Shown piece by piece: positions 43,405-60,843 of a stretch of DNA of 64,000 nucleotides (its first letter is position 1; every line of letters starts with the position of its first letter). The stretch is from Candidatus Micrarchaeota archaeon (GTDB lineage: Archaea; Micrarchaeota; Micrarchaeia; Micrarchaeales; CABMGC01), in contig JAJZKO010000001.1 in assembly GCA_021850805.1 (NCBI GenBank), positions 45,885 through 109,884 of the forward strand, in the 5' to 3' direction. Both the position numbers and the translations under genes were made by a program. Under the pieces are notes generated by a model. That model was given only the letters and a program-made list of their open reading frames with translations, was not told the DNA's origin and searched no databases.

Positions 43405-44238
43405 CTACTTCTGCTTCTGGAACATGGAATCGAAATCTTTTCCAGAAGGAAGGGAATAGTTCATTTTGTAGAGCATCTGCAGCTCCCTGCCCGATATCCT
43501 AGACATGCTAAGGTCGAATACATTCATAACCGTCTGGAGCTGGGCTATCTGGTTGCTCAGTAAATCGAGCGTCTCCTTCTCGCTTATCCCTACAGCAGTA
43601 GTCTCCACATACATGAGAGTGTTTATCGGCTTTTCCCCGTTCCCCAGGCGCTCTATTCGCATCTGGGTTATGTTTATCTTTCTCTGCAGCTCATTTATGG
43701 TCATAGTGCTTGGATTTGAGGAGTTCATCTCCCTTGCCAGCTGGAACTCTAGAAGACCACGCCTTGATTCTACTTCGTCCCTGTACGCCTGTATGTCTAG
43801 GGCTGTGCTTATTACATTGAATTTGAATGGGAAGTTTATGCTCATTATTGCTCTCTCCCACCTGTCCGTTGCGGTGGCAATCTCAGTCTCCTCGTTTGCA
43901 CCCTGATTCTGTGCGGTGAATACATACTTGTACAGATTTGCTGTTATGTAGCCTGTCGCGTAGTAAAGCCCATTTGTGTACTTGATTATGGCAGTCTCAT
44001 TCTTTGGTATTATGTAGCCTTTTCCGGGTATAACTGATATGCCGAATATTGTGGTGAAGAGAGGAAATGCTATGAAATCCGCATAGTTTATCATGAGTAT
44101 CGCAACTATTGCCAGTAGCGCGAATATAACCACAGGTACGACGAACGGGCCGAAGATGCTTGCGTTTGCATTTACAAGAACTAGGAACGCGACTAATATC
44201 GTAGTTGCAAGATACATCATTTCTTCCTGGTCTACCAT
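43405..44238 (-). CDS. membrane-anchored protein, paralog of 44250..45092
   Basis: 277 aa. N-terminal TM segments, then a soluble domain. Its C-terminal region aligns by eye with the neighbouring gene. Confidence 0.6.
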   Translation of the reverse strand: MVDQEEMMYLATTILVAFLVLVNANASIFGPFVVPVVIFALLAIVAILMINYADFIAFPLFTTIFGISVIPGKGYIIPKNETAIIKYTNGLYYATGYITANLYKYVFTAQNQGANEETEIATATDRWERAIMSINFPFKFNVISTALDIQAYRDEVESRRGLLEFQLAREMNSSNPSTMTINELQRKINITQMRIERLGNGEKPINTLMYVETTAVGISEKETLDLLSNQIAQLQTVMNVFDLSMSRISGRELQMLYKMNYSLPSGKDFDSMFQKQK

Positions 44239-44249: not shown

Positions 44250-45092
44250 CTACATGCCCTCTTCCATAGTCTTCTGCCTTATCCTCTCGCTTATCGTTGC
44301 CGTCGGTATCATATAATCAGGCTCTATAAGCGTGAGCAGCTCCGTTCCTGAGACTAGATCCGTGCTTATGCCCAGTATTGCGCTTATCCCTGATGCTATC
44401 TCCTCGGCATCCTGCACTGCAATGTTTACGGCCTCCTCTTCCGTGCCTCCGGATCCTGTTACCATGGCGTACGCAAGGAGTGCTTTTGACTGTGACCTAT
44501 TCACGTTGTCCAGTAGGTTTCGCCACATGGTAACTTCCCCTCTTATCCTCTCTGCCATGTTCCTCGGTGTTGTCTTGTCATTCTCGCTTGCCGTGTACTT
44601 TTCTTCTGCCTGGTTGAGCTTCATTGTTATCTTGTTTATGTACTCATCTTTGTTTATAACGTAAAGCTGCGAAGATATTTTTACCGGGGTTTTTGATATA
44701 GAGGCAATGCGCCCGAAAAGGGATGAGAACTCAACTTTCTCTTCGTTTGTCATCTCAGTTGCCGATCTGTAGACAGGTATCTTCACGAAGGCGCTCGCAT
44801 ATACTGTGGATCCGTCCCTTGATATTATTGCGTTGCCGGATGGCGCAAGGATGAAGGGGTCGTCGCTGTTCAGCACCACTGTTCTTCCCTTCATCTTGAA
44901 GAGTTTCATCATGAAATATGTGTAATACCTGGTTGAGAATGCCGCTATGTCGAGCAGCAGGGCAACCAGTGTGAGTGCGAACCTTATTGCAAAGCCAACA
45001 TTTACCTCGAGCGGTACGATTACCAAGACAAGTGATACCAGGAAAAAAGCCATGAATAATATGCTTTTGTTATCAAAAGGCAAGTGGACCAC
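44250..45092 (-). CDS. membrane-anchored protein, paralog of 43405..44238
   Basis: 280 aa. N-terminal TM hairpin (ILFMAFFLVSLVLVIVPL / FALTLVALLLDIAAF), then a soluble domain. First gene of the operon. Confidence 0.6.
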   Translation of the reverse strand: MVHLPFDNKSILFMAFFLVSLVLVIVPLEVNVGFAIRFALTLVALLLDIAAFSTRYYTYFMMKLFKMKGRTVVLNSDDPFILAPSGNAIISRDGSTVYASAFVKIPVYRSATEMTNEEKVEFSSLFGRIASISKTPVKISSQLYVINKDEYINKITMKLNQAEEKYTASENDKTTPRNMAERIRGEVTMWRNLLDNVNRSQSKALLAYAMVTGSGGTEEEAVNIAVQDAEEIASGISAILGISTDLVSGTELLTLIEPDYMIPTATISERIRQKTMEEGM

Positions 45093-46655: not shown

Positions 46656-46802
46656 TACGGCAGTGACGCTGATACTAAAGAGAGTTTACGCGATAAATAG
46701 GATAGAGCAGATAGATTGAAGAAGAAACTGGATGGCGAAAGCAGTTAGAGTGCAATCTAGCGTACAAGAACTCAGATTTCAATGCCTTAGGAATGTGATT
46801 AG

Positions 46803-47462
46803 TTGGATGCGGTTTACGCAAAAGGCAGGAGAGGGTTCATCCCTGATGAGATATACAATAAGCAGGTTAGGCCCAATATGGTTATCTCATGCGGGGATGC
46901 GATAGTTATTACATACAACGGCATTTTGCTTGGAAAGAGGCTAAATCCGCCGATGCAAGGCGAGTACTGGTTCCCGGGAGGGAGGCTGCATAAGGGCGAG
47001 GGACTGGAGGAATCAATTATAAAAAATGTTAAAAGCGAGACAGGTTTGGCGGTTGAAGTTGTCAAAGGGATGTTTCCAGTAATTGGAGATACCATATTTG
47101 CAGTAGGCGAGGACAGGCATTCCCTAAATACGACCCTTATAGTAAGGCATGTTGGGGGTGTGCCAGATCTTAGAAAGGATATAGAAGCTCCGAGATTCAT
47201 AAACAGCATCGAGGCTGACCTTCACCCTTATGTAAAAGAGATCCTGAGAAGAAGCGGTGTCTTCCATCCGGATGTAAAAGAGGTTCTTTGGAGCGGCGGC
47301 AGCGAGGTGCTGCAGAACCACCAGATACCAGGGATAGTACGGTATGATGAGACTGATCCGAAAGTAGCTCTGATGCAGATTGCAAGGCTTAGGGAATCAT
47401 ACCCTGACGCTGCGCAGCATGAGCTTGATAGGTTAAAGATTGCTTCTGAACTGCGCGAATGA
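46803..47462 (+). CDS. NUDIX hydrolase
   Basis: 219 aa. Nudix box GGRLHKGEGLEESIIKNVKSETGL. TTG start in the track, and the true start may be an internal Met. Confidence 0.75.
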   Translation: MDAVYAKGRRGFIPDEIYNKQVRPNMVISCGDAIVITYNGILLGKRLNPPMQGEYWFPGGRLHKGEGLEESIIKNVKSETGLAVEVVKGMFPVIGDTIFAVGEDRHSLNTTLIVRHVGGVPDLRKDIEAPRFINSIEADLHPYVKEILRRSGVFHPDVKEVLWSGGSEVLQNHQIPGIVRYDETDPKVALMQIARLRESYPDAAQHELDRLKIASELRE

Positions 47463-47566: not shown

Positions 47567-48790
47567 TTACGGAGAGAATATTGCCGGGCTTTCCTCATGT
47601 AATGTACCTTCCTGCTGTCCTCCTGCTTTCCTCGTGGCGGATCTGAGGGATGCGCTTATATCAAAGACATGCCGCACATACTCGCCCATAAATGCATCCG
47701 TGTCCACGCCAAGCTTATCCAGTTCCTGCATCAGCTCTGGATATTTGGATTTATACTCGCCGTTTACGAAAGCGATAAATTTCTCGTATGCACTTGGCTC
47801 TGATGTGCCTGTTCCATACTTACCAGGAACCTGCTCGTGGAGTTCGTGCAGCTCCATGAGCTTCTCGTGCAGCTCGTTGCTGTGGCTCCTTACCGCATTG
47901 CCAATGTTTATGGTGCTGACTTTTATCCTGCCACCAGTTGAGCTTGAGAGGTTATGGAAGAGCTGATTGGAATTTAGGAGCAGATCTTCTATAGCGGCAA
48001 GCTCCTCTTTAGGAAGCGCATTCTTAAACTTATCCGTAAATGTATGGACTACAGCGAATAGCAGCAGGTTGGATTCGTTTGCCTTGCTTATCGTATCTGA
48101 CATGCCAGGATCAGTAATCTTTATCCCTGCGTTTAGCTTGTTTTCAAGGTCTTTCACGCGCTTTGATACTTCTCCGTATAGCTCGTTGATTGTTTCGTGG
48201 TACTCTTTCTTAGCGGCTGAAAGCAGTGCGGCTCCGGCGGGTCCCGCTACTGATAATGTAGCCGGTTCATGTAAAACATCAGAAGTTACCCTAGGCATCT
48301 CAAGCGTAGGCTGATCAGTTGTCGCTGTGCCTGCAGGTGCCCTTGGCTGGGTTATCGATGCGGCATTGTCCCTCTGCTCGCTTATGTATGATCTGAGCAT
48401 CTCTTTTGCAGCCTCTATGCCCTCTCCCCGCGAGGACATCTTATTTGCGGCGCTATACGCATAGGCAAGGGTCTCGCGCGCCGCTATAAGATCAACAAGG
48501 GCGCCGCGCATACGTACAAAATCATTCTGAAGCAGCATTTCCTGTAGATGCTTTACCAGCCTTTCCTCGGTTTCCAGCTGTTTCTTGGTAGGCGCCCCTT
48601 TTGTAGATGCGTATGCGGCAGGGATATCTTCCCCTACCATCTTCTCAAGCTTCCTGAAACGCGCAAGCCTCTCTCTAAAGGCTTTGTTTTCGCCTATGTC
48701 CTTGAGGTCCTTGTCATTGATAAATCTTGACTCTGCTTTCAGCTCATTCTGGCTCTCAACCTTATTCTTCCCCACGCTGATAATTGCCAT
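47567..48790 (-). CDS. hypothetical acidic/helical protein with a 5' end (first 20 codons) inside an inverted repeat
   Basis: 407 aa, no family recognised. Codons 1-20 (MAIISVGKNKVESQNELKAE) lie in IR-L and are antisense to a copy of the C-terminal coding sequence of gene 49185..50285. The true start is uncertain; the next Met is about residue 51. Confidence 0.5.
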   Translation of the reverse strand: MAIISVGKNKVESQNELKAESRFINDKDLKDIGENKAFRERLARFRKLEKMVGEDIPAAYASTKGAPTKKQLETEERLVKHLQEMLLQNDFVRMRGALVDLIAARETLAYAYSAANKMSSRGEGIEAAKEMLRSYISEQRDNAASITQPRAPAGTATTDQPTLEMPRVTSDVLHEPATLSVAGPAGAALLSAAKKEYHETINELYGEVSKRVKDLENKLNAGIKITDPGMSDTISKANESNLLLFAVVHTFTDKFKNALPKEELAAIEDLLLNSNQLFHNLSSSTGGRIKVSTINIGNAVRSHSNELHEKLMELHELHEQVPGKYGTGTSEPSAYEKFIAFVNGEYKSKYPELMQELDKLGVDTDAFMGEYVRHVFDISASLRSATRKAGGQQEGTLHEESPAIFSP

Positions 48791-48962
48791 AACCTACTCG
48801 ACGATAGTCCAGATGGGCGAGATAATAGGTGGAATGGCAAGGACTTCAGGAAGGCTGAGGCTTGTAGTATAACCTAGATGCGACAAAACCCATAGAAGCT
48901 ATCTTTAAATATCAGAAAAAACAGAATAAATATTGCCTAAATTGGCTAAAGGTACCCTTATG
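48730..48962. repeat. inverted repeat, left arm (233 bp)
   Basis: I reverse-complemented this segment block by block. It is identical to 49095-49327 over all 233 nt. Confidence 0.97.
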
Positions 48963-49094
48963 AACTTCGCTTATATTATGCAACATCCGCTGCAACTCCA
49001 GCATGCGCTTCTCTGCCTGATTAAGTACAGAAGGTATGCTGTTTATTGCGTTGTTTTCTTTTCTTGCTACGCCAGTATGTGGTTTTGCGAATAC

Positions 49095-49327
49095 CATAAG
49101 GGTACCTTTAGCCAATTTAGGCAATATTTATTCTGTTTTTTCTGATATTTAAAGATAGCTTCTATGGGTTTTGTCGCATCTAGGTTATACTACAAGCCTC
49201 AGCCTTCCTGAAGTCCTTGCCATTCCACCTATTATCTCGCCCATCTGGACTATCGTCGAGTAGGTTATGGCAATTATCAGCGTGGGGAAGAATAAGGTTG
49301 AGAGCCAGAATGAGCTGAAAGCAGAGT
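49095..49327. repeat. inverted repeat, right arm (233 bp)
   Basis: Perfect reverse complement of 48730-48962. Contains the last 47 codons plus stop of gene 49185..50285 and 90 nt of its 3' flank. Confidence 0.97.
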
Positions 49328-50285
49328 TGGCCTCCTGGACGTCAAGCACGAGCGGAGAACTTGGGGAGATGGCGTTCTGCTGCGCGCCGTTGCCTGCGCT
49401 GTATTTGTTCACCGATGTGGTTATTGTGCTTAGTTGGCTTGTCAGAGAGGCCGAGGTGAAGTAGTATGCTATTGAAAAAAGGACAGGCATTATGAAATAG
49501 AAACCTATCGCAGCTGCCATCATCATTCCTCCGAAAGAGCGTGTTGGGAGGAGTGCCCTGAAGGCAATCCCTGGGATAAGGAAGACTGGTATTGCCGCAT
49601 ACATGAAGAATAAAATTATGTAGTATTGCACGTACAAGGATATCAGGGCATCTATCATTAGCCCTACCACAGTTGTCACAGGCCAGTAGAAGTTGACCAT
49701 TATCGGCACGGTGAGTATCTTTCCTATGTTGGTATAGCACTGCGGTTCAAGCGGGTCTAGTTCATTCGGAACGCAGACGGTAAGCCTGAAGCTCGCGTAG
49801 AATGCGTCTACTACAGCATCATTCAGCATAGGCACAACCAGATTCTGGGTGGCGTTTATTGTGGTGGATATGTAAGATAGGGATGCGTTATACGGGTCTA
49901 TTGGGCCTGTTATTGTTGCGGTAAATGCGCCGAAGAGGGTGGCTGCTATGAGAAGGAAGAATACTGCAATTATAGCAGTCGCTGTTGCCTCGTACATCTC
50001 ACCTATGGCGAATGTCCGCAGCCTCTCGTTCTTGAATATCATGGCTGTCATGAAAACTGCGGCAGCTATTGCAAAAGAGAGCATCATTACTACCAATACC
50101 ACTGGCGACCATTTGTTCCATGAGTTTATCACCTGCTGGTTTATGCTGCTGCAGTACCATGGAGCAGTTACCTTGACAAATCCGCTTGATGCGCAGTAGT
50201 TGAAGAGCGAAGCTGCATTTGAGGCTGATGCAGAGAGGAATATTCCGAATATTATGATCATTCCTAGTTTATTCATGGCAATCAT
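49185..50285 (-). CDS. polytopic membrane protein, paralog family member 6 of 6
   Basis: 366 aa. Signal-like N-terminus, ERLRTFAIGEMYEATATAII segment, and motif FRALLPTRSFGGMMMAAAIGFYFIMP. Confidence 0.7.
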   Translation of the reverse strand: MIAMNKLGMIIIFGIFLSASASNAASLFNYCASSGFVKVTAPWYCSSINQQVINSWNKWSPVVLVVMMLSFAIAAAVFMTAMIFKNERLRTFAIGEMYEATATAIIAVFFLLIAATLFGAFTATITGPIDPYNASLSYISTTINATQNLVVPMLNDAVVDAFYASFRLTVCVPNELDPLEPQCYTNIGKILTVPIMVNFYWPVTTVVGLMIDALISLYVQYYIILFFMYAAIPVFLIPGIAFRALLPTRSFGGMMMAAAIGFYFIMPVLFSIAYYFTSASLTSQLSTITTSVNKYSAGNGAQQNAISPSSPLVLDVQEANSAFSSFWLSTLFFPTLIIAITYSTIVQMGEIIGGMARTSGRLRLVV

Positions 50286-51326
50286 TCATATTATGCTTGT
50301 AAGTATTGACATAAAATCCATCCTCTCCCCTATCGCCTTTGAGAAGTCTATTATGAACGTGTCAACTATTATGAAGTTCATCAGCGGAATCAGTGTCAGA
50401 CCCATTATTATGAATCCGACATAGAGCAGTATGACATTTATAAATGCATATATTGGTGCAACGCCTACCACTAGTGTAAAGAGGAATGTGAGCAGCGTGC
50501 TCCAGCTTAGGAGAAGCGCGCCTATGTTGATGTTGCTCAGGGCAAATGTTATGAACCCGTACGAGACCGTGACTAATAGAGGGTAGACAATGCCTATGCC
50601 CAAACCGAACGCTATCATTGCACCGCCGAATGTCCTGCTTATCCCGAAAGCCCTGCCTATGAGGCCCACGGTCATGAAGATTGAGAATAATATAGGGGAT
50701 GCGGCAATCAGGAGAAGCTGCATCTGCTCCGCAAGGAAGAGTATGAAAGCAAGCTGCATGTAAGGAGAAATATAGTGGAATACAGGATATACCGATTCTA
50801 TCGGATTGAAACTGAAAGATATGCTGGAGAAGACGAATGGTATTGATACGTGTATCCCTGGGGAGAATGCAATTAGCAGTGCGAGGTAGTATATTACCTG
50901 GGCAAAGTTGGCAAAGTCTGAATTAAATTGGAATACGTTGCACAGCGCCAGACCGTAAAATGTATTTATCGATGCACCATATGGCGTGTTCGTAGCAGGC
51001 TGGCATGCAGGAGGGAGAAGGCCCACGCTTTTGTAGATTGCTGCAGGCTGCGCGGAGCATATGAATCCTGACACGAATACGAATACGAACACCAGTATTA
51101 TGGTGAAGAGGGAATCGTAGATCTTTGACCTAACCCATACCCTTATGTCGCTCCTTCCGGCAAGAGGCGCCAGCATGAATATTAGGATAAGGACTGTTAT
51201 CACTGCAAGAGATGCTATGATTATTATTGGGAACCAGAACAGGTAAGGGGTCGAGAAGAAACTAGTAGCATTGGCAAGGCAGCTTCCGAGGAGGACATAT
51301 ACGTATGCGAATTGGCCAAGCATCAT
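50286..51326 (-). CDS. polytopic membrane protein, paralog family member 5 of 6
   Basis: 346 aa. Motif GRAFGISRTFGGAMIAFGLGIGIVYP. Abuts the next gene with a 0-nt gap. Confidence 0.7.
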   Translation of the reverse strand: MMLGQFAYVYVLLGSCLANATSFFSTPYLFWFPIIIIASLAVITVLILIFMLAPLAGRSDIRVWVRSKIYDSLFTIILVFVFVFVSGFICSAQPAAIYKSVGLLPPACQPATNTPYGASINTFYGLALCNVFQFNSDFANFAQVIYYLALLIAFSPGIHVSIPFVFSSISFSFNPIESVYPVFHYISPYMQLAFILFLAEQMQLLLIAASPILFSIFMTVGLIGRAFGISRTFGGAMIAFGLGIGIVYPLLVTVSYGFITFALSNINIGALLLSWSTLLTFLFTLVVGVAPIYAFINVILLYVGFIIMGLTLIPLMNFIIVDTFIIDFSKAIGERMDFMSILTSII

Positions 51327-52525
51327 ATCATCTTGCTAAGGACTTTTGAGCTCTGCAGCGATGGAGCCCCGAGCAGATCCCCAAGTATCTCTAGTATATC
51401 GTAACATATTATAATTGCTATCACAAAGCCTATCGCCTGAAATCCGAGGAACGAAACCGCCTTTATGAACGTGCCTATCTCGTTCAGCAGCTGGCCGTTT
51501 AGGCTTACCAGATTAAGGGAGAGCACCGTAAATAGGAATTTGGCAATCTCTGCGAACGGATCTGATAGAAGAGCGGTTGATGAGCACGGGCCTACAGTCG
51601 CAGCGCCTCCTGTGGAGGTATTGCATATGGGTGAGTTAGGGCTGGAGAAAACTACGGATATGCCGTAGACTATCGCAGGAAATATTATGTAGAAGGATAT
51701 GAACAACGCCATTAGGGTTCCTCCTGCGGCTCTTGTCCATGGTATCGAGCGTAGGATTATCCCCAAATAAAGGAAAATGGGTATGAAGAAATATATGAAG
51801 AGAAGCAGTATTATCATAGATATCCCCATTACACCGACGGTAAGTAGTGCTGATTCCTGTATCCAGAGCGTGGTCTGGATCAACTTTGCCCCGCCGAATG
51901 GCACAAAGGTTATTCCGAAGTTATTTGGCATCAGGTTTATTACGACAGAAGATAGCGTATGGTAGTATACGAGATTCTCGACAACGCCGAGGTAATCGTT
52001 ATATAGCGCGTTGTACACGAAATTCGTATATATGTTTGTGCATGTGCTTGTGTATAGTGCGGTCATGGCGGAGAGTGGGCTGCCACTGGGAGCCGCGGCT
52101 CCGGACGACCCGAGGGTGGCTATATTGGCAATGAACGCCACGCCCGGGTATAGGGCTATTGGGCCTGCGAGTATCAGCACAATTGCTATAAGGTTGACGA
52201 GACCTTCAAGCATCTCGGATTTTGCAATTGTCTTAAGCTTTTCTATGCCGAATGCGAAGCCTATAGCGTATACGAGACCCACAACAATGAACACCATGAG
52301 TATGATCATTGCAGATACAAGCAGTATTGTGCTGTATGAACTTGCCTGTATAAGCGATTTGCTTATCAGGGTCGGACCCGTGTTGCCAAGGCCGTTGTAT
52401 CCCTGGAAGAGAGAACTGCATTTGAATAGATCCGGGAAGAATACGCTTGTTGATCCCGCGTGCGCCTGAAGCAGTATGGAGAAGAAGGTCAATAAAGCGG
52501 CAATCAAATGGTAATTTTTCATCAT
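51323..52525 (-). CDS. polytopic membrane protein, paralog family member 4 of 6
   Basis: 400 aa. Signal peptide-like MMKNYHLIAALLTFFSILLQAHA. Motif LRSIPWTRAAGGTLMALFISFYIIFP. 4-nt overlaps at both ends. Confidence 0.7.
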   Translation of the reverse strand: MMKNYHLIAALLTFFSILLQAHAGSTSVFFPDLFKCSSLFQGYNGLGNTGPTLISKSLIQASSYSTILLVSAMIILMVFIVVGLVYAIGFAFGIEKLKTIAKSEMLEGLVNLIAIVLILAGPIALYPGVAFIANIATLGSSGAAAPSGSPLSAMTALYTSTCTNIYTNFVYNALYNDYLGVVENLVYYHTLSSVVINLMPNNFGITFVPFGGAKLIQTTLWIQESALLTVGVMGISMIILLLFIYFFIPIFLYLGIILRSIPWTRAAGGTLMALFISFYIIFPAIVYGISVVFSSPNSPICNTSTGGAATVGPCSSTALLSDPFAEIAKFLFTVLSLNLVSLNGQLLNEIGTFIKAVSFLGFQAIGFVIAIIICYDILEILGDLLGAPSLQSSKVLSKMI

Positions 52526-54081
52526 ACGAACCTCGATAGACCTATGATATTTACGTCTCCTCCGAAGAGATAAGAGAGCCCCATAGTTGCGGATATGATA
52601 AGTATAAGGTTAAGGATGGGTATTATGACACCGCTAACGGCCTCTATGCCGTAAAGGTGTATCAGGCCGAATGTGGTGTAAGCCGCGTTTATCGGCCCTA
52701 CATTATGGAACTGAAGGGGTGTAGCGCCGACGGGAAGGCTATATCCTATGAATGCGCTTGAGAATAAAGTTGTCAGGAGGCCTATAAAACTGAATCCTGG
52801 AACGAGGAAATACACGGCATACTCCATCTCTGAAGGAAGGATATCCTGCGGATAGTAGAAATCCAGGTTTATTATGTCCTTTGCCTTGGGGAATACGTAA
52901 AAGTCTATCGGCCTCTTGTAATAGCATGTCGTCCCAGTCGATCCTGAAGATGGCGGGAAGGTTCCGGGGCATGCACTTATTGGACCTGAGATTGTAGGAG
53001 GTATCCCGTTCTGGAGCTTGTTTGCGCTGGTATAGCAGTATAGCGCACCACTGTCGCTGCCGCTCACAACCCTGCCGCATAGCGGGGTCATTGCCGGTAT
53101 AGTGCTTGAGCCTATCGGTGTAATGCTTGAGGTGTTGCTTAGCGAGGAATATTCAAACATGAATATTATTGGATATATTGTCATCGCCACTACGACCATC
53201 GCCATTATTGTGCCCCCTGCTCTTCTTGTGAGCATGTTAGAGCGGAGTATCATCCCTGCCGCAAGAAGGTAAGGCCAGAGAAAGAGCAGTATGAATACGA
53301 ATATCATCTGGGCAAAGAATATGTAGAATATGAAGGTGGATTCTATTGCTAGAGAGGGCATTACAGACCTGTTGAAGAAGTAGCCGTAAAAGTAATCATA
53401 TGATATTGTTATGCTCGAATATCCCTCAGCACTTGCTGCGCCGAGAAACGGTATGAAGCACGTTTCTGGGAAGCAGAATCCGTTGAATACATGGAAGTTT
53501 CTCAAGAAGAGTATGAACGTGTCGTACTTGTAGAAAGAGTTGAGGTTGGCAACCGTCTGGTTTGTCATGTTTGCGGATAGGACGTATACAGATCCAAGCC
53601 CGTAATCAAGCTTGCCGGTAAATGTCCTGGAATTTATCACTTGGGAGCAGACAAGGTTAGTTGGGGAAGGTATCGGGCCTGGGAAGTTATATTTGCTGTT
53701 TATGATGTTTACCTGCGATCCCGACAGTGTCTTGCATATCGATGAGGTTACTGTAGGGTTTATTATTGAGGTTGTCTGAAGCGTTGTGCCGAGAAGGCTG
53801 AATAGGTATAGTATCAGTATTGCAAATATTATCGTGGCTATCGCCTGGAAGAATTCGTTCTTCCCTGCAGATTTGGCCCTCTGGTTGTTTAGTATGGAGC
53901 CTATCATATAGTAGAGGCCTGATACGATTGTGCTAAGCAGGACAGCGACGCCGACTGCAGGAAGCCACGTGGTGAATGAGGAATATTGGGATATTCCCGC
54001 GGGGGCAGCGTATGTGGTAAGCGTATACATGGCTACCGCGATGAGGGCAAATGGCATTACCTTTGGTATCTTAGTCTTCAT
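52522..54081 (-). CDS. polytopic membrane protein, paralog family member 3 of 6
   Basis: 519 aa. Motif LRSNMLTRRAGGTIMAMVVVAMTIYP. Larger, Cys-containing extracytoplasmic insert. Confidence 0.7.
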   Translation of the reverse strand: MKTKIPKVMPFALIAVAMYTLTTYAAPAGISQYSSFTTWLPAVGVAVLLSTIVSGLYYMIGSILNNQRAKSAGKNEFFQAIATIIFAILILYLFSLLGTTLQTTSIINPTVTSSICKTLSGSQVNIINSKYNFPGPIPSPTNLVCSQVINSRTFTGKLDYGLGSVYVLSANMTNQTVANLNSFYKYDTFILFLRNFHVFNGFCFPETCFIPFLGAASAEGYSSITISYDYFYGYFFNRSVMPSLAIESTFIFYIFFAQMIFVFILLFLWPYLLAAGMILRSNMLTRRAGGTIMAMVVVAMTIYPIIFMFEYSSLSNTSSITPIGSSTIPAMTPLCGRVVSGSDSGALYCYTSANKLQNGIPPTISGPISACPGTFPPSSGSTGTTCYYKRPIDFYVFPKAKDIINLDFYYPQDILPSEMEYAVYFLVPGFSFIGLLTTLFSSAFIGYSLPVGATPLQFHNVGPINAAYTTFGLIHLYGIEAVSGVIIPILNLILIISATMGLSYLFGGDVNIIGLSRFV

Positions 54082-54082
54082 C

Positions 54083-55258
54083 TCATCCCCAGAACGGGCC
54101 TATGCCCATTATCCTTGATATTGAACCGAATCCATTGGAAAGACCCTGTGCGAACCCGACGGTTATTGCGATGTCAAGTGCAACTAGGACTATTCCCTGG
54201 AAAGCATATGCTGCTATCTTGTATCCGTAGCCTATCAGTACCCCATTGAGATTGAAAAGTATGCTTATGAGATTTGAGAACGTGCTTCCATAGCCCCCCA
54301 GCCCTGAAGATGCAAGGCTTATGAAAGACGAGTAAGGGAGCTGCGTTCCGGCAAATGTTGTAACGCCCGCAGGCGAAGAAGAGAAGAGGTTTGCAACAGG
54401 AAGGTTTGTCAGCTGTGGTGAGAGTACGTATGCTGGATAGGGGTTGCATATGCTTATCAGCGGAGTGCATGGGGTGTAAAGCCATGCCATTATGAATCCA
54501 TTCATTATTATGGTAAGCGGGAATATGAAGTAGAAGCTTATCGCTATGGCAATGAATGAGTTAGACGCCTCCTTCAGCCTTGGGCCTGCAAATGGTATGA
54601 ATCTTATCAGTATAGCAACAGGAACTATCAGGGTAAGGGCTATCGACTGCAGAATGTCTAGAAAGAGCATGAGCACATATAGTATCCCGAACGTAACAAC
54701 TATTATTCCGGCGTAAGCCGTATTTAGTACGCTGGAGAAAGCGAAGTATATGCCTATTACATTGTGCCCTAGATCGAAGCCAATGAAGTTCTGGATGATG
54801 GTTATAGGTATTGACGTTATGAGGTCCATTATATTGGCGGCTATTACCAGATTTACAGATTCGGCATAGAGTTCTGTCCATAAGGAGAGCGCTTTTGAGA
54901 ATAGGAGATTCTGTATCGTGTATTCTGCGTATTGCATGGGGTTTGCATAGTTAACTGTAGCTCCGGCTATATACGCGCCCAGGTTGCATGAGAAGGCGGC
55001 GAGGCCTATTATTCCAGCTATTATGAATAAGGTAAGTATTATCTCTGCTGCCTCGTATCTCGATATGCCCTTAAGCTTCTCCCTGTAAGTCACGGGAAGT
55101 ATGTTTGCGATGGTATATATCAGGATTGTGAGTATCATTGCGAATAAAGCAACTACCCCGCTCACGGATATCCATCCTGTGACATACTGCCCGCCAAATG
55201 CACAGGAATTAGTGTAAGGGGAAGCGGCTGCGAGTATTGGTGCAAGTAGCCATAGCAT
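54083..55258 (-). CDS. polytopic membrane protein, paralog family member 2 of 6 (divergent motif)
   Basis: 391 aa. Same architecture, but the motif region is degenerate: IRFIPFAGPRLKEASNSFIAIAISFYFIFP, with no GG. Confidence 0.65.
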   Translation of the reverse strand: MLWLLAPILAAASPYTNSCAFGGQYVTGWISVSGVVALFAMILTILIYTIANILPVTYREKLKGISRYEAAEIILTLFIIAGIIGLAAFSCNLGAYIAGATVNYANPMQYAEYTIQNLLFSKALSLWTELYAESVNLVIAANIMDLITSIPITIIQNFIGFDLGHNVIGIYFAFSSVLNTAYAGIIVVTFGILYVLMLFLDILQSIALTLIVPVAILIRFIPFAGPRLKEASNSFIAIAISFYFIFPLTIIMNGFIMAWLYTPCTPLISICNPYPAYVLSPQLTNLPVANLFSSSPAGVTTFAGTQLPYSSFISLASSGLGGYGSTFSNLISILFNLNGVLIGYGYKIAAYAFQGIVLVALDIAITVGFAQGLSNGFGSISRIMGIGPFWG

Positions 55259-55262
55259 GTGA

Positions 55263-56480
55263 TCACGCGAGTTTTAGTTTGCTCCCAAGGCTGAGCCTGA
55301 GGGTTCCTCCAAGCGATCTGGCTATGCTGTCCACTATCGGATATAGTATCATAAGATCTGCGGCAAATATGAAGAACTGTAGTATCATATAGAATCCATA
55401 ATTAAGTATGTAGTTGTAGAAATAGTACACCCCGTTGAATATGTTTGAGCCTATTCCTGCATATTGCGCAAGGTTGACTATGGGCCCTATTGTGAGCTTG
55501 AAGATTGTATCTATTATCTCTGCGCCAGTATCAAGAAAGAACCCGTTTCCGCTTGTGGGAAGCAGGTTGCCTGAAGATGGCCCTGGTGCAGGCGCCACAT
55601 AGACGTATGGGGATATGGCTTGGGTGAGGGGATAGTTGAAGAGCACAAGAATCGATGGGTATACAATCCCTGCGCCAATGCCTATTGCTATAAGGGTGCC
55701 TCCTATATTTCTCGAGAATGGGAATGCCCTGAAGACCAGTCCCAGAGGTATTATCATTGTCAGACTGGCTTCTATTATTGAGTATAGATTGTACATGAGG
55801 CCTACGGTAAGAAGAGAGGTTGGGAATAGTATGAACTTTATCATGTCGTTTAGCATGGACTCGTATTGTGCAAGTATGTGGTTCCCGCTTTCCAGCAGGT
55901 ATGTTGTGTATATTGGGGTTACAGAGAATCCACTGAGGAATGCGCCGACAAAGGGGATTGGTATTGGAACATACAGGCTTATGCTGAGGCCTTGATAGAG
56001 ACCTATTGCTATTCCAAGCGTAGATACACCATTCCATATATTCACAAGGTTTCCGCATACCGTGTTTAGGTATGTATAAGATTCGGAATAGAGCGTGCCG
56101 ATGTTGTTCACGTAGGACGCAGAAGGGGCTGCGGCGCCTGGAATTACAAACAATGCTATGCTGCTTATGAAGGTTATCGCAAGATATATGCCTGCGATAA
56201 GCATAGCGGATTTGGCTATCTCCCAGTACTCGTTCTGCAGCCAGTTCCTTATTCCTGCCGCTGGGAATATCTTGCTGAGCATGTAACCTACAGCAACTAC
56301 ATCGAAGGATAGGGAAAGCGCCAAGAGGGATACAGATATTGCCGCTGATGGCAGCCCTGCAAGCGGCTTGGTCACCTCCGCAGGGCAGAATGTAGATGAC
56401 GCAGCCGAGGATACGCCTACAAATAGTGCCAGTAGCAATGCGCTTAGCATAAGCGTACTCCTTTTACCGCGCATGCTCAT
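55263..56480 (-). CDS. polytopic membrane protein, paralog family member 1 of 6
   Basis: 405 aa. Signal-like MSMRGKRSTLMLSALLLALFVGVSSA. Motif FRAFPFSRNIGGTLIAIGIGAGIVYP. Confidence 0.7.
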   Translation of the reverse strand: MSMRGKRSTLMLSALLLALFVGVSSAASSTFCPAEVTKPLAGLPSAAISVSLLALSLSFDVVAVGYMLSKIFPAAGIRNWLQNEYWEIAKSAMLIAGIYLAITFISSIALFVIPGAAAPSASYVNNIGTLYSESYTYLNTVCGNLVNIWNGVSTLGIAIGLYQGLSISLYVPIPIPFVGAFLSGFSVTPIYTTYLLESGNHILAQYESMLNDMIKFILFPTSLLTVGLMYNLYSIIEASLTMIIPLGLVFRAFPFSRNIGGTLIAIGIGAGIVYPSILVLFNYPLTQAISPYVYVAPAPGPSSGNLLPTSGNGFFLDTGAEIIDTIFKLTIGPIVNLAQYAGIGSNIFNGVYYFYNYILNYGFYMILQFFIFAADLMILYPIVDSIARSLGGTLRLSLGSKLKLA

Positions 56481-56522: not shown

Positions 56523-57251
56523 TTAATGCCTCAGCAGCGGGAAGCGCCTTATGTACGCTTCTGCGATGAATATGACAAAATAAGGGAGTATGAATACGGA
56601 GTTTATCACCAATGTCACATAGCTCCCTGCCACTCCGAACAGGCCTGAGGATACCAGATCAACAAAGGAAGTTGCAGCTGCGAAGAGCACAAGCCACAGG
56701 ACCACGTATTTAGGGGATGTTACTACAAGCCTTATGCTTCCCTTGAACGAGGCGAAGAACCCCTTGTTGTCTATAACCATCGCCGTAGGCATATAGAATA
56801 TCAGTAGGAATATGATAAGGTTCAACGCCTCAGCCCATATAACCGGGAAGGAGAAGAGGTATGAAGATATGTTTAGTATTATGACAATGAATGCGTAGAA
56901 AAGGAGGATTGAGAATACGCGGCTTATGTATTTCTCTATCTCGAGCATCACCCTCTTGCTTGTCGCCATGTGCGTCTTCTCCGACTTTACAATCAAGCTT
57001 ATGGCAACGAATGCAAAGCTTATGAAGAGCATGGATACGAAGGTTGATATGGTAACCACGGCCAATACCGTAGGGTTTGTATTGACAAATATGCTTGCAG
57101 TCCTCAGGAATATTGCACCTGTGCTTATATACGTAGGCAAAGGAGCGAGCAGCGGTATCAGGAATGCTATCAGGAAGGGTATCGAGAAGAGGATTATAAG
57201 ACGGATATTGTCCCGGTATATCCCGAGCGAGTCGGAAACCACGTTTGCCAT
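56523..57251 (-). CDS. hypothetical polytopic membrane protein
   Basis: 242 aa, about 6 TM. No family recognised. Same strand and chain as the paralog array. Confidence 0.6.
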   Translation of the reverse strand: MANVVSDSLGIYRDNIRLIILFSIPFLIAFLIPLLAPLPTYISTGAIFLRTASIFVNTNPTVLAVVTISTFVSMLFISFAFVAISLIVKSEKTHMATSKRVMLEIEKYISRVFSILLFYAFIVIILNISSYLFSFPVIWAEALNLIIFLLIFYMPTAMVIDNKGFFASFKGSIRLVVTSPKYVVLWLVLFAAATSFVDLVSSGLFGVAGSYVTLVINSVFILPYFVIFIAEAYIRRFPLLRH

Positions 57252-57274: not shown

Positions 57275-59185
57275 TCAGCTAAAATTATATATTTCTTTGG
57301 ATATATATACGTCGCTTGAATTGTAGATGTATGCGGAGGCCACGTATATTCTTGAGGTAGTGTTTATGCTGGCATTTATGCGCATTGTTCCTTTGCCTGC
57401 GGCGAGCCTTATAAGATTAGGATTTACTGCACACGGGTATCCGGTGCAGTTGAGTGCGTTGGGTAGTACTTTATCACCCCCTAGCCCGTATATCGTAGGC
57501 TTGGATAGAAGCGAGTTTGACTCTTCCTCTGTGGATACGATAAGATAGAGATCCCTAGGAGCCGTAGATAGATAGTTCAGATTAAAGGAGTAGACTGTAA
57601 GGTTGCCTCTCCTTGCAAGTGTCTGGTTGGTTACATTGATACTAAAATGTGATGCGAATGCGGAATGGTATGTTGCCGGAAGAAACGCGATAAGAAGCAC
57701 TATCAGTATAGCAGAGCAGAGGGCGACGCGGATATTTGTAAGGTGATTTCGTGATGACCCGATAAATTTTATGAAGTCGCTTTTCTTGTATGAAATTATT
57801 GCAACTACGGAAAATAGGCCGAATGTTGCAAAGTAAGTTGCTGATGAACGATCCATAAGCAGGAATGGGATCATGCTCAGGACCGGTATCAGAGCCTTTT
57901 CCCTAGTCACTATAAGGATAGCGACTGCCAGGAGTATTCCGAGAATAAATAACGAAGTATATGAGGGAAGGCTTATTGGATAATAATATGCTAGCGAGTA
58001 GCCGAGAAGGGCATATGAATCAGGGAATATGCCTCCGCTGACAGGATCGAATACAGAGTGCATGAATAAGGCGGGTGACAGAAGCATGAAGTACGAATTT
58101 AATATCAGGAACACTGCGCAGGTTCCTATTAGCGCAACTGCGCCTCTCCGCTTCCCATATTTCATGAATGAATAGATTATAAGGAGCAGGACGGGTATCC
58201 AAAGCTCCTCCTGGAGCGATGCTGCAAGGCCCAGAAGCACCCATGATCTTCTCCACCCTATCTTTGCATATGCCAGTATTATTATAGCAAGCATCAGCGA
58301 TGTGGTTGGTGATGCTACGGTAATGGTGCCTATGCTAAGGAAGATTATTAGCCATGGGATGGGCCTCGCCAGTACCTTTTCCCTGAGGACATATGCAACT
58401 GCAAACAATAGCAGAGCTACGAATACCATTGACTGCACTTGCAGGTCTATGGTGAATATGTTGCTTATTGTAGGCTTTGAGATGAAATAAAACGGGATTG
58501 AGGAAATTAGGTACAGGGCAGGATAGTTAAGGACGCCCACTATTGTATTACTTGCTGTGAAGGTTATGTCGGCTTTGTGACTAAGGGAGAAGAGGAGCTG
58601 GGATATTGACGATGAATATGGATTAAGGCCATGCAATGTTGCGTTTATTGAATAGAAAGTTATAAGCGGCTCGTCCGTAAGTGTGAAGCGCGTTACCACG
58701 ATCCCGTAATACGCTGCGATTATTGCTATGAATAGAATGGATGCCGCTACTATGATTGCTATCTCCTTTCTGCTGCGCCGCGTTGTCTTAAGGCATAGTT
58801 GGATTATCAATGCGGAGCATGCTAACAGCGGAAGAATTACAAGCGCCTGAAGGGTATAGACATATGTGATGGATATGAGGTTAATTGCATAGAATGAAGC
58901 CAGCTTTATATTCATGAATTCAGGATTAGAGAAGAATAGCAGTATGGAGATGGCGCATAGCGCATGCTCAAGCTTCCGCCTGGAGGTTGCTGCTCTGATT
59001 GGAAGGTGCTTATTGCTTATGTAGATTATAGAGTATGATAAGAATGCCAGTGCATATATTGAAAGACTAAGGGAAAACTCGCCAGTAAGAGACGAGATAA
59101 ATGTAAATATAAATAAAAAAAGGGAAATGAAGAATCCATTTCCCCTGAAGTATGCCCAAACCCCGCCTAAAGGATGCTTGGACAC
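57275..59185 (-). CDS. large polytopic membrane protein with C-terminal extracytoplasmic domain (possible GT-C-type glycosyltransferase-like)
   Basis: 636 aa. More than 12 hydrophobic segments, then about 130 aa of sequon-rich soluble C-terminal domain. The GT-C suggestion rests on architecture only. Confidence 0.6.
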   Translation of the reverse strand: MSKHPLGGVWAYFRGNGFFISLFLFIFTFISSLTGEFSLSLSIYALAFLSYSIIYISNKHLPIRAATSRRKLEHALCAISILLFFSNPEFMNIKLASFYAINLISITYVYTLQALVILPLLACSALIIQLCLKTTRRSRKEIAIIVAASILFIAIIAAYYGIVVTRFTLTDEPLITFYSINATLHGLNPYSSSISQLLFSLSHKADITFTASNTIVGVLNYPALYLISSIPFYFISKPTISNIFTIDLQVQSMVFVALLLFAVAYVLREKVLARPIPWLIIFLSIGTITVASPTTSLMLAIIILAYAKIGWRRSWVLLGLAASLQEELWIPVLLLIIYSFMKYGKRRGAVALIGTCAVFLILNSYFMLLSPALFMHSVFDPVSGGIFPDSYALLGYSLAYYYPISLPSYTSLFILGILLAVAILIVTREKALIPVLSMIPFLLMDRSSATYFATFGLFSVVAIISYKKSDFIKFIGSSRNHLTNIRVALCSAILIVLLIAFLPATYHSAFASHFSINVTNQTLARRGNLTVYSFNLNYLSTAPRDLYLIVSTEEESNSLLSKPTIYGLGGDKVLPNALNCTGYPCAVNPNLIRLAAGKGTMRINASINTTSRIYVASAYIYNSSDVYISKEIYNFS

Positions 59186-59210: not shown

Positions 59211-59594
59211 TCAGCAGCTTGCAGGTAGTGTTATTGAACCTCCGCCAGCACCAGCTGTTCCGGAGAATCCTACTACCATATTGACAATGAATGGAGCTAT
59301 TATTACGAGCACCAGCCCGATTACTCCTCCTACTATCATTGCCATAGACCATCCCTGCGCTCCAGCTCTTACGTTTCCAGCTGCAGGCAACAGATGCGCT
59401 ACCGCATAGATGGCACCGCCAGCTATGAAGAGAGCTATAGCCAATACACCTACGACAGTTCGTATTGTATTTACTATGCCGCATATCTGCGAGGTTACTC
59501 CTGTAACTCCCGTTGCTGCTGATGCTATTATACTGGAAAATCCAAGAACCACTAATGCCATATACACTAGGTTCGTGAACTTCGATATGTTCAT
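59211..59594 (-). CDS. small two-helix membrane protein, VirB2/TrbC/CedA1-like pilin candidate
   Basis: Start moved to the internal ATG (MNISKFTNLVYMALVVLGFSSIIASA|ATG). The track start at 59675 overlaps the esterase gene. Signal peptide, then hydrophobic helix, basic loop (PAAGNVRAGAQG) and hydrophobic helix. A TATA-like taataatat lies about 20 nt upstream. Confidence 0.5.
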   Translation of the reverse strand: MNISKFTNLVYMALVVLGFSSIIASAATGVTGVTSQICGIVNTIRTVVGVLAIALFIAGGAIYAVAHLLPAAGNVRAGAQGWSMAMIVGGVIGLVLVIIAPFIVNMVVGFSGTAGAGGGSITLPASC

Positions 59595-59674
59595 ACAATC
59601 AACACGCATATTATTACATTGGCTATTTATAAGCTTTGCCCCATTTTGGGCTGCTATTATTAAATATTTGCCCA

Positions 59675-60721
59675 TTAGCCAAGCTTCTCTTGGAGGAAAG
59701 AGGCTGTGAGGTTCTCTATCTGCGGGATTGAGGGATTTATCGGATGCGGGCCTGCCTGGGAAAAGCTATGTCCAGAGTTATTAACTATTATCAATGTCGC
59801 ATTGTTTCCATGTTCTATAAGCGAGTTGTACAGTACATATGACTGATATGGAGGCACGGTGGTATCCTTATTGCCCTGGAATATCAGGAACGGGGGCTCG
59901 TTGGTACCTATGTAGTTTACCGGGCTTGCGAGCTCGAGCAGCGTGTAGTTGTCCATGAATACCTCATTCAGGTCCTGCTGCCTGTATTCGTTTATCTGCA
60001 CGCTTGTGGAGTTGTGGTATTCATACCACGTTAGATTGCTTGGACCAAAGTTATCTACTACAGCTTCTACACTGCTAGAGTAGTTTGCGTATGGGCCGTT
60101 AGACCATAGGCTGCTATTTGAAGTAAATGCGAGAAGCTGAACTAACTGGCCTCCTGCGCTGCTTCCTACAACTCCTATCTCGTTTGGGTTTATATTATAT
60201 CTCGCTGCGTTGGCCCTGAAGTATCTTACAGCACACTTGACGTCTATTATCTGGGCAGGGAATGGGTATTGCGGCGCAAGCCTGTAGTTTATCGCCGCTA
60301 CTATGAAATTATCCCTTAACAGCGCAGGTACTATGTAATAGCTGTTCTCAGGAAGGGAGGAGCCGTTTACAGTGTATTTTTCTATCTGGGCATAGGTCAA
60401 GTTGAATGCGGATCCTGCATGCCATCCGCCTCCGTGCACAACTATCACCAGAGGCAAAGTTTTGTTCCTGCTGGATGGCGGTAGATAGATATATGCAATG
60501 TCGGAACTGTTCCCTGATGGATTTCCGAACGGGCAGTAGTTTGCCTTGATCATCTGCGGACCGTAGAGCACCCCTACGCCAGACTGCCCCACGGCAGAAC
60601 CGGATTTGGCATGGCTGCCAATAACCAAATACGTGATGAGCATTATTACTATAGCGGTTATTATTGCTGCTATTGCGTATGCCGCTGCGCTGCTCCCTGA
60701 TGGAGTATGCACTTGTATCAT
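59675..60721 (-). CDS. membrane-anchored alpha/beta hydrolase (esterase/lipase, HGG type)
   Basis: 348 aa. N-terminal TM AAAYAIAAIITAIVIMLITYLVIG. Oxyanion VVHGGGWHAGS. Nucleophile elbow VVGSSAGGQL. Confidence 0.85.
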   Translation of the reverse strand: MIQVHTPSGSSAAAYAIAAIITAIVIMLITYLVIGSHAKSGSAVGQSGVGVLYGPQMIKANYCPFGNPSGNSSDIAYIYLPPSSRNKTLPLVIVVHGGGWHAGSAFNLTYAQIEKYTVNGSSLPENSYYIVPALLRDNFIVAAINYRLAPQYPFPAQIIDVKCAVRYFRANAARYNINPNEIGVVGSSAGGQLVQLLAFTSNSSLWSNGPYANYSSSVEAVVDNFGPSNLTWYEYHNSTSVQINEYRQQDLNEVFMDNYTLLELASPVNYIGTNEPPFLIFQGNKDTTVPPYQSYVLYNSLIEHGNNATLIIVNNSGHSFSQAGPHPINPSIPQIENLTASFLQEKLG

Positions 60722-60843
60722 CCTCTCCTAGAACCGCAGGTGCAGCCGCAATCGCAGCCATCCTTACATATGCATCCTGATGAGCAGCCGCACATGCACC
60801 TTCCTCCGCATTCGCATCCCGCGCCTGCGCCCTGATTAGCCAT
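60718..60843 (-). CDS. Cys-rich metallothionein-like peptide (41 aa)
   Basis: Below the track cutoff. My codon-by-codon translation is MANQGAGAGCECGGRCMCGCSSGCICKDGCDCGCTCGSRRG, with 11 Cys, all in C-x-C or C-x(3)-C spacing. Its TGA overlaps the esterase ATG (ATGA). Confidence 0.45.
   Translation of the reverse strand: MANQGAGAGCECGGRCMCGCSSGCICKDGCDCGCTCGSRRG

Follow-up and report, generated by a model that had tools for sequence, protein, structure and literature searches.

A VirB2/TrbC-superfamily pre-pilin at the head of a conserved operon of Micrarchaeota, probably part of a Ced/Ted-type apparatus derived from type IV secretion systems

A small gene on the minus strand of a 64,000-nucleotide stretch of DNA from a Candidatus Micrarchaeota archaeon (contig JAJZKO010000001.1; this whole stretch is called the window in the following) encodes a 127-residue protein, for which an earlier note, made from the letters alone, had proposed a VirB2/TrbC/CedA1-type pilin. 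The VirB2/TrbC part of that proposal is borne out by relatives that pass the Pfam cut-offs, and the protein belongs, as a divergent representative, to an already known superfamily, partly captured by automated annotation; similarity to CedA1 or TedC, in contrast, is not detectable. The gene belongs to a conserved operon formed by one to three pilin genes, an optional gene for a 636-residue protein, a gene for a 242-residue protein, six genes for paralogous polytopic proteins, two genes for bitopic proteins and one for a VirB4/CedB/CedD-like ATPase. This cluster is present in nearly all of the sampled genomes of Micrarchaeota, and has the look of a pared-down machine for type IV secretion or the exchange of DNA. 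On balance, and taking in the mechanism proposed below, it is probably the pre-pilin of a chromosomal Ced/Ted-type apparatus derived from type IV secretion systems (T4SSs) and conserved across Micrarchaeota, in which no relaxase is detectable.

The two top Pfam matches of the window pilin are TrbC/VirB2 (PF04956; 18.7 bits, E 0.002, profile positions 8-98 of 98) and T4SS_pilin (PF18895; 15.5 bits, E 0.018). Homology to the VirB2/TrbC/T4SS_pilin superfamily is established transitively, through family members that pass the Pfam gathering scores (27.9 bits for TrbC and 26.6 bits for T4SS_pilin). Thus, P0171 passes both (34.6 and 32.1 bits, respectively), P0167 passes for TrbC (31.3 bits; T4SS_pilin 21.0, below cut-off), and P0166 and P0169 pass for T4SS_pilin (36.0 and 26.9 bits; TrbC 25.0 and 25.8, both below cut-off). 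In pairwise BLASTP comparisons the window pilin is 31% identical to P0171 over 102 residues (E 3e-20) and 30% identical to P0167 over 111 residues (E 8e-18). From 1.84 billion representative proteins, a profile built on the close homologues collected 340 at E<=1e-3, 161 of them at E<=1e-10. When 106 family representatives of 100-200 residues were scanned against Pfam (matches at E<0.01), TrbC and T4SS_pilin were each found in 26 (best E 1.3e-7 and 5.4e-6, respectively) and the next most frequent family in 4. Precomputed Pfam matches and a UniRef 'TrbC/V...' name also occur among the homologues, and of the two adjacent family genes in the complete genome of Ca. Fermentimicrarchaeum limneticum one is so labelled by UniRef. 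The named relatives are essentially all Micrarchaeota, to which the family appears to be confined.

The architecture of the protein is that of a VirB2-type pilin, in which a leader, with predicted cleavage, is followed by two hydrophobic helices that a short basic loop connects. The leader reads MNISKFTNLVYMALVVLGFSSIIASA, followed by the residues ATG, with an n-region MNISK, an h-region and a c-region A-S-A. Right after the predicted cleavage site (ASA), homologues carry a Gly/Thr/Pro insert of variable length, and in the window pilin a Gly/Thr-rich stretch separates the leader from the first helix. A Kyte-Doolittle scan places hydrophobic segments at residues 5-33, 36-73 and 79-116, in line with the helices at 3-23, 32-68 and 73-109 of an AlphaFold2 (AF2) model of low confidence (predicted local distance difference test, pLDDT, 61.8). 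The loop between the two helices of the window pilin is LLPAAGNVRAGAQG, and at its position 76 every one of the 106 family representatives on which conservation was counted has K or R; it is this conservation (106/106) that suggests contact of the basic residue with lipid. Also conserved are Y63 (102/106), G59 (97/106) and G89 (98/106) and, in the loop region, P70 (93/106), Q80 (87/106) and G81 (88/106). A C-terminal Cys is present in 102/106 members, and exactly two Cys in 69/106. The whole layout, down to the Gly/Ala tail ending in Cys, had been described in the earlier note, and it is seen again in the sequence, the hydropathy profile, the AF2 model and the K/R at position 76.

The two cysteines, Cys38 and Cys127, flank the hairpin, and would lie at its open end if both termini are outside the cell. 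A putative disulfide between them may staple the hairpin, as a functional analogue of the head-to-tail cyclisation of TrbC/VirB2. No TraF-like peptidase was identified for maturation of the pilin, and the conserved Cys38...Cys127 pair is present instead.

The family also includes larger proteins. The 'polypilins' P0015 (1071 residues), P0016 (632 residues) and P0020 (342 residues) contain 7, 4 and 4 tandem pilin hairpins, respectively, with a Cys...Cys pair and a basic loop in every copy; an extracellular domain of ~250-400 residues precedes the repeats in P0015 and P0016. They may be precursors that are cut into several pilins, or membrane proteins with 8-14 transmembrane (TM) segments. In P0042, P0044, P0063, P0162 and ~35 other proteins of more than 200 residues, the pilin domain is fused, at either side of the hairpin, to long extracellular regions that are Ser/Thr/Cys-rich or immunoglobulin-like, which suggests pilin-anchored adhesins or tip proteins.

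The product of the gene is the 127-residue protein that starts at the internal ATG at 59594, as previously proposed, and translation from there recovers the sequence then quoted. The longer open reading frame (ORF) that contains this ATG would yield 154 residues; this form is an artefact of ORF extension, because homologues begin at the internal Met, extension upstream of it is often impossible, and a BRE/TATA-like (B recognition element/TATA box) element lies inside the 27-codon extension. In detail, homologues at 41-54% identity share the start Met and have MNISK-like N-termini; many homologous loci lack any in-frame start upstream of it; and in most of them a BRE/TATA-like element, aaaggTATTTAAA, is found ~35-55 nt 5' of the conserved Met. 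The TATA-like element of the window, preceded by a purine-rich BRE-like aaagc, falls within the extension. That the real product might nonetheless be the 154-residue form, which the earlier note had named as one outcome that would count against it, or that the ORF might be no gene at all, draws on the presence of an in-frame ATG at 59675 and on several gene callers reporting the longer form. However, this ATG shares nucleotides with the stop codon of the esterase gene upstream, the 27 additional residues are missing from the homologues, and the protein is kept in 52 genomes, so that we regard this explanation as hardly credible; the homologue starts and the promoter-like element rule out the 154-residue product. 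The gene itself is far beyond chance, with 14 close homologues, down to 41% identity, the named ones being Micrarchaeota. The window, of flat base composition (45-50% GC), carries exactly one pilin gene, matched by the family profile at E 7e-41.

A scan of species-representative genomes for the pilin gene returned 52 loci, almost all labelled Micrarchaeota, 43 of them with enough downstream sequence to judge the neighbours and 33 with at least 9 kb. Two or three adjacent pilin genes are found in 14/52 loci. The gene for the 242-residue polytopic protein is the constant companion of the pilin, being downstream of it in 40/43 loci and just upstream in the remaining 3, and at least five of the polytopic paralogs are encoded in 29/33 of the loci with at least 9 kb downstream. 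The gene for the 636-residue protein directly follows the pilin gene in 26/43 loci and is, therefore, considered accessory. In the window the order on the minus strand is pilin, 636-residue protein, 242-residue protein and six paralogs of 405, 391, 519, 400, 346 and 366 residues, with intergenic gaps of -4 to 42 nt from the pilin to the sixth paralog. Thus, the pilin gene does stand at the head of a chain that continues into the six paralogs, as had been claimed, but not in direct succession, as two genes intervene. No match to a relaxase or a coupling protein was found in the cluster genes scanned with Pfam and NCBIfam.

The 242-residue family shows 47% mean column identity, with weak GPDPase_memb matches in 5/43 members, and its ortholog in Fermentimicrarchaeum is recognized by hhalign at 100%. 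The 636-residue protein has a near-invariant D171-E172 pair and C580/C585, and no Pfam, NCBIfam or PDB match. Its identification as a GT-C glycosyltransferase, considered because a PMT_2 enzyme holds the neighbouring position by the pilin genes in Fermentimicrarchaeum, was rejected, with no Pfam support on 30 orthologs and an hhalign value of 0.6% against that PMT_2. The PMT_2 (GT-C) genes of F. limneticum and a relative (L065 2112-3626 and L066 7544-9079) lie just upstream of the pilin genes, beside the 242-residue ortholog, unlike the gene for the 636-residue protein of the window, which lies just downstream of the pilin gene. Glycosylation might act on the mature pilins at their N-terminal tail, which is rich in Thr, Ser, Gly and Pro. 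Two of the loci (L013 and L014; DAHXMW010000003.1 and DAHXMW010000023.1) are contigs of one metagenome-assembled genome (isolate clean1631) with a 100% identical pilin gene, which points either to duplication of the region or to the binning of two strains in one genome.

The six tandem paralogs, of which a profile scan found exactly six in the window, are one-to-one orthologous between genomes with their order kept, and share the invariant motif RxFPFxRxxGGxxIAxxIxxYxIxP (R...R...A...P; R219/A237/P247). The fixed order and orthology suggest that they form a hetero-oligomer. The profile of the pilin family matches their N-terminal TM hairpin (residues 24-95 of the 391-residue paralog; hhalign 87.8%, E 3.3e-6), and hidden Markov model matches to the N-terminal region of paralog orthologs reach 21 bits; as controls, two other polytopic families of the operon gave 0.1% in hhalign against the pilin profile. 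A pilin-like N-terminus has been reported for CedA with respect to CedA1, and for VirB6 with respect to VirB2 (Beltran et al., PMC9905601); since the N-terminal hairpin of the paralogs is pilin-like in the same way, they are treated as candidate VirB6/CedA-like channel subunits. A homologue search with the paralog profile returned 8 proteins.

Beyond the sixth paralog, the cluster continues with two proteins that combine N-terminal TM segments with a soluble domain (280 and 277 residues), followed by an ATPase. The six loci that could be mapped past the sixth paralog (L011, L012, L049, L053, L062 and L064) all encode homologues of the 280-residue and/or the 277-residue protein; L065 and L066 have genes for 269-278 residues at this position, judged by position and size alone. 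An ATPase of ~500 residues with DUF87/AAA_10/P-loop_TraG matches follows, all on one strand, in L011, L012, L062, L065 and L066. The ATPase gene is followed by three small genes with no informative family match, whose orthologs are arranged alike in L011 and L012. In bacterial T4SSs, VirB3 precedes VirB4; here, the two proteins with a TM hairpin and a soluble domain hold that place, and would anchor the ATPase at the membrane. The ATPase of the window consists of the ATPase domain, with neither a TM segment nor the VirB4 N-terminal domain. It is matched by the Pfam families DUF87 (6e-15), AAA_10 (5e-14) and P-loop_TraG (3.5e-11) and, among NCBIfam models, by CedD (E 3.4e-20; 72.2 bits, cut-off 600), VirB4-like CD1110 (E 3.2e-17), CedB (E 4.1e-17; 62 bits, cut-off 700), Mycoplasma ICE VirB4 (ICE, integrative and conjugative element; E 8.9e-17) and TraC (E 2e-15). 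All NCBIfam matches are far below the equivalog cut-offs, and the protein is not a CedB/CedD equivalog; the best models span the whole ATPase domain, whereas HerA models match part of it only. Residues 57-328 match the C-terminal domain of VirB4 in the PDB (4ag5) at E 1.4e-8.

In the window the ATPase module has the order and strand that it has in uninterrupted loci; the ~4 kb that precede it are lineage-specific and contain a non-conserved 407-residue ORF, a gene for a NUDIX hydrolase and one for a 482-residue basic protein, rich in Ala, Lys and Arg, whose N-terminus has a TM segment. No such interruption is present in L011, L012, L065 and L066, where the cluster keeps to one strand. A 241-nt inverted repeat with 99% complementary arms and a 116-nt spacer borders the ~4-kb stretch. 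One arm comprises the last 47 codons of the sixth paralog and the 98 nt that follow them; the other extends over the annotated start of the 407-residue ORF, so that the reverse complement of the 3' end of the paralog gene encodes the first residues of this ORF. The repeat may be the trace of a rearrangement or have arisen in the assembly.

Several results weigh against the assignment of the pilin and its operon to a T4SS-derived apparatus. The window pilin itself is under both Pfam gathering scores; neither the window protein (phmmer) nor two family profiles matched any solved pilin among all PDB chains; and Foldseek with the AF2 model gave nothing below E 1 against the PDB. TedC (8dft_A) appeared only at rank 16 (E 7.4, TM-score 0.33), so that the Foldseek comparison with TedC/CedA1-type pilins that had been recommended as a check gave no significant match, with a query model of low confidence. 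Alignment of the pilin family with the single sequence of R388 TrwL by hhalign is in register, at a probability of only 5.8%. As for the paralogs, no TrbL/VirB6 Pfam match was found among 24 members, hhalign of their family with R388 TrwI (VirB6) gave no match, and Foldseek with the AF2 model of the 391-residue paralog (pLDDT 57.6) gave no informative fold. Finally, the ~4 kb described above, with two plus-strand genes and the inverted repeat, split the ATPase module from the pilin operon in the window. The PDB, Foldseek and TrwL negatives carry little weight, because R388 TrwL finds pKM101 TraM only at E 0.24 although the two are genuine VirB2 homologues. The pilin-search negatives also weigh little because the components of Ced and Ted are likewise without recognisable mutual sequence similarity (PMC9905601). 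Thus, with searches of low power, no sequence, profile or fold similarity of the window pilin to CedA1 or TedC was found among PDB chains or by Foldseek.

These negatives also bear on the explanation that the hairpin resembles VirB2 by convergence, and that the protein is a subunit of an unrelated membrane complex, such as one for envelope/S-layer (surface layer) biogenesis or a transporter, together with the 242-residue protein and the paralogs, the nearby ATPase being a helicase of the HerA type with a function of its own. Hydrophobic proteins of two helices easily give spurious matches, the window protein is under the Pfam cut-offs with no PDB or fold support, and the paralogs and the 242- and 636-residue proteins match no known T4SS family. 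Yet each of the two pilin Pfam models is matched at near full length by a quarter of the pilin family, with the next family at 4/106, and some members pass the curated cut-offs; the control polytopic families of the operon stay at 0.1% against the pilin profile; and the ATPase, co-directional with the operon in five genomes, aligns over its full domain to the VirB4/TraC/CedB/CedD models and only partly to HerA. Convergence is, in the light of these points, improbable.

If the gene is the pre-pilin of a Ced/Ted-type apparatus, as we favour, the following mechanism can be proposed. The pre-pilin would be inserted by Sec and cut after Ala26 by signal peptidase I, leading to a ~101-residue hairpin whose two ends face outwards, while its HLLPAAGNVRAGAQGW loop is cytoplasmic; Cys38 and Cys127, at the open outside end, would form the stapling disulfide that stands in for the cyclisation of TrbC/VirB2. 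The VirB4-like ATPase, docked via the two bitopic proteins and the channel of six VirB6-like paralogs, would then extract the pilin along with membrane lipid and polymerise a tube, whose lumen would be lined by the loop and K/R76. Such a tube, or a short stalk, would join the Micrarchaeon to another cell and serve to move DNA or other macromolecules between them. The scheme as a whole, the pilus and what it carries included, is inferred.

Whether there is an extended pilus at all is where a second explanation departs, according to which the VirB2-superfamily protein forms a short stalk or the lining of a channel in a T4SS-like translocon, with the six paralogs and the ATPase moving substrates across the single membrane and the S-layer at cell-cell contacts. 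It shares the homology and operon evidence discussed above. Furthermore, archaea lack an outer membrane, Micrarchaeota are directly attached to host cells, pili are absent from the T4SSs of monoderm bacteria (PMC12102498), and the fusion of pilin domains to large extracellular domains, or their 4-7-fold repetition in tandem polyproteins, suits membrane-anchored structures better than a homopolymer. On the other hand, CedA1 and TedC form long, lipid-containing pili in archaea likewise lacking an outer membrane (PMC9905601), the universal K/R of the loop and the small size kept across the family agree with pilins that form filaments, and the presence of 1-3 stand-alone pilin genes at the operon head, with a strong-looking promoter, is typical of an abundant major subunit. 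We regard this explanation as the main rival of the pilus-forming one, though as rather unlikely.

Comparison with known systems sets the Micrarchaeota locus in context. With the bacterial pilins of the VirB2/TrbC/TrwL (PF04956) and T4SS_pilin (PF18895) families the pilin has in common the leader, here with a predicted cut, the pair of hydrophobic helices joined by a short basic loop, a length of ~100 residues after the (predicted) cleavage, and the clustering of its gene with that of a VirB4-clade ATPase. In contrast to those systems, the locus is in the chromosome of a DPANN archaeon, not on a plasmid or an ICE; no VirB3, VirB5, VirB7-B11, relaxase or coupling protein is detected in the cluster; a conserved outer Cys pair is found where VirB2/TrbC have cyclisation or acetylation; and the N-terminal tail that follows the signal peptide is variable and Gly/Thr/Pro-rich.

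The closest archaeal systems are Ted of Thermoproteales (TedC, TedA and TedB) and Ced of Sulfolobales (CedA1, CedA/CedE and CedB/CedD) (PMC9905601, PMC11868833). These, which serve the exchange of DNA, consist of a chromosomal, relaxase-less set of a VirB2-like pilin, one or more polytopic VirB6-like proteins and a VirB4-like ATPase, and, judged from the genes alone, the Micrarchaeota set would have the same composition. TedC has a leader of the signal peptidase I type followed by a flexible N-terminal stretch, as the Micrarchaeota pilin appears to have; the polytopic CedA has an N-terminus similar to the pilin CedA1, as the paralogs have with respect to their pilin; and CedD and CedB are among the best NCBIfam matches of the ATPase. 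The differences are six fixed-order polytopic paralogs versus one or two in Ced/Ted, the extra constant partners (the 242-residue protein, two bitopic and three small proteins), an ATPase without TM segment or N-terminal domain, and a host that is an ultrasmall obligate symbiont instead of a free-living hyperthermophile.

The lack of a relaxase is common to Ced/Ted and to the T4SS of Patescibacteria (Candidate Phyla Radiation, CPR) (PMC9905601, PMC12102498), the latter being essential for epibiotic growth; the VirB2-like pilins of Patescibacteria were found with the same two Pfam models and are often encoded in arrays of at least two genes (PMC12102498). Patescibacteria and Micrarchaeota thus have in common ultrasmall, host-dependent cells, the lack of a relaxase, pilin arrays and a location in the core chromosome. 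However, the Patescibacteria system is a bacterial monoderm T4SS of the MPF-FATA type (MPF, mating-pair formation) with PrgI/VirB3, TrsD and a single VirB6 (PMC12102498), whereas none of the PrgI/VirB3 and TrsD accessory families is found in the Micrarchaeota cluster, which has the six-paralog array instead. Tandem arrays of VirB6 paralogs are known from the rvh T4SS of Rickettsiales (PMC2653234, PMC7648143), so that in both cases several divergent polytopic paralogs are encoded in tandem in a host-dependent organism with a reduced genome. The paralogs of Rickettsiales are, however, bona fide VirB6/TrbL proteins within a full VirB/D4 system, whereas those of Micrarchaeota are linked to VirB6 only via the pilin-like N-terminal hairpin, with no TrbL match.

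Table 1. Features of the window discussed in the text (coordinates are positions in the window).
Feature	Position	Strand	Remarks
Pre-pilin coding sequence	59211..59594	minus	127 residues and stop; VirB2/TrbC/T4SS_pilin superfamily
Longer ORF	59211..59675	minus	154 residues; contains the internal ATG at 59594
Signal peptide, residues 1-26	59517..59594	minus	predicted signal peptidase I cut between ASA and ATG, from reading of the sequence
Hydrophobic helix 1, ICGIV...IYAV, residues ~32-68	59391..59501	minus	AF2 and hydropathy
Cys38 codon	59481-59483	minus	just before helix 1; conserved in 92/106 family members
Short loop LPAAGNVRAGAQG	59352..59390	minus	with Arg76 (codon 59367-59369)
Hydrophobic helix 2, WSMAM...VVGF, residues 82-110	59265..59351	minus	conserved MxxGG and G93
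Gly/Ala/Ser-rich tail	59214..59264	minus	end ...TLPASC; Cys127 (codon 59214-59216)
TATA-box-like element aaagcTTATAAATA / TTATAAAT	59625..59632	minus	~34 nt 5' of ATG 59594; putative promoter
636-residue polytopic membrane protein	57275..59185	minus	C-terminal extracellular domain; accessory operon member
242-residue polytopic membrane protein	56523..57251	minus	constant companion of pilin
Six tandem paralogs	49185..56480	minus	candidate VirB6/CedA-like channel subunits
Paralog, 405 residues	55263-56480	minus	
Paralog, 391 residues	54083-55258	minus	
Paralog, 519 residues	52522-54081	minus	
Paralog, 400 residues	51323-52525	minus	
Paralog, 346 residues	50286-51326	minus	
Paralog, 366 residues	49185-50285	minus	
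Inverted repeat, 241 nt	48730-48970 / 49087-49327		edge of the ~4-kb stretch
Non-conserved ORF, 407 residues	47567..48790		in the ~4-kb stretch
NUDIX hydrolase and 482-residue basic protein	45207-47462	plus	in the ~4-kb stretch
280-residue protein	44250..45092	minus	N-terminal TM hairpin and soluble domain; between paralogs and ATPase
277-residue protein	43405..44238	minus	N-terminal TM segments and soluble domain; directly precedes ATPase
VirB4-clade ATPase, 500 residues	41864..43366	minus	ATPase domain only
99-residue protein gene	41554-41853	minus	after ATPase
151-residue protein gene	41124-41579	minus	after ATPase
244-residue coiled-coil protein gene	40371-41105	minus	after ATPase
LamG-domain protein	36830-37723	plus	297 residues; 295/289 residues in L011/L012
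Cys-rich 41-residue ORF	60718-60843	minus	14 Cys
Second DUF87/HerA-like ATPase, 528 residues	61372-62958	minus	C-terminal winged-helix (TrmB/MarR-like) region

Other genes are found around the cluster (table 1). In or beside it is a gene for a LamG-domain protein whose signal peptide is of class III (type IV pilin-like), and an archaeal type IV pilus assembly set (a T2SSE ATPase and two T2SSF proteins) divergently adjoins the pilin gene on its upstream side in several genomes (L004, L008, L011 and L012). The Ced system depends on Ups pili, a dependence that the adjoining type IV pilus genes recall. Upstream of the esterase gene, the start of which it overlaps by 4 nt, is an ORF for a metallothionein-like 41-residue protein (MANQGAGAGCECGGRCMCGCSSGCICKDGCDCGCTCGSRRG). 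The second DUF87/HerA-like ATPase of the window has anti-phage-associated HerA models as its best NCBIfam matches; it was considered as a part of the pilin system and rejected, as the upstream neighbours differ between genomes.

To our knowledge, no machinery for transfer is known so far from Micrarchaeota. In a full-text literature search, neither VirB2-like pilins nor a Ced/Ted-like system turned up in connection with Micrarchaeota or DPANN archaea; VirB4-like domains are discussed only for the SPEARE proteins of Nanohaloarchaeota (PMC10266531), and the genome paper of ARM-1 does not mention pili or secretion. Cryo-tomography of a Micrarchaeon-host pair has revealed nanotubes and a barrel-like docking structure, the protein components of which are not named in the passages searched (PMC11329633). 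The T4SS-derived system headed by the pilin thus appears to be undescribed so far.

The broadest interpretation of the locus is that of a chromosomal, T4SS-derived machine found throughout the phylum Micrarchaeota (DPANN), made of a disulfide-stapled VirB2-like pilin, a hetero-oligomeric channel of six VirB6-like paralogs in fixed order and a minimal VirB4-type ATPase, which would act as a conduit for the exchange of DNA, lipids or proteins between these metabolically dependent symbionts and their hosts. We hold this view tentatively, as somewhat less than an even bet. If true, the conduit would be an archaeal counterpart of the T4SS that is essential for the epibiotic growth of Patescibacteria, and a candidate for the envelope structures that cryo-tomography shows where Micrarchaeota and hosts are in contact (PMC11329633).

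DPANN archaea take up lipids, nucleotides and further building blocks that their hosts supply, and the locus gives concrete candidates for the components involved. It would add a third group of archaea to the T4SS/Ced/Ted lineage and parallel the T4SS of the ultrasmall bacterial epibionts, the Patescibacteria, and its conserved terminal Cys pair is a possible alternative to pilin cyclisation. The locus may, in short, be how the Micrarchaeota, tiny symbiotic archaea, exchange material with other cells.

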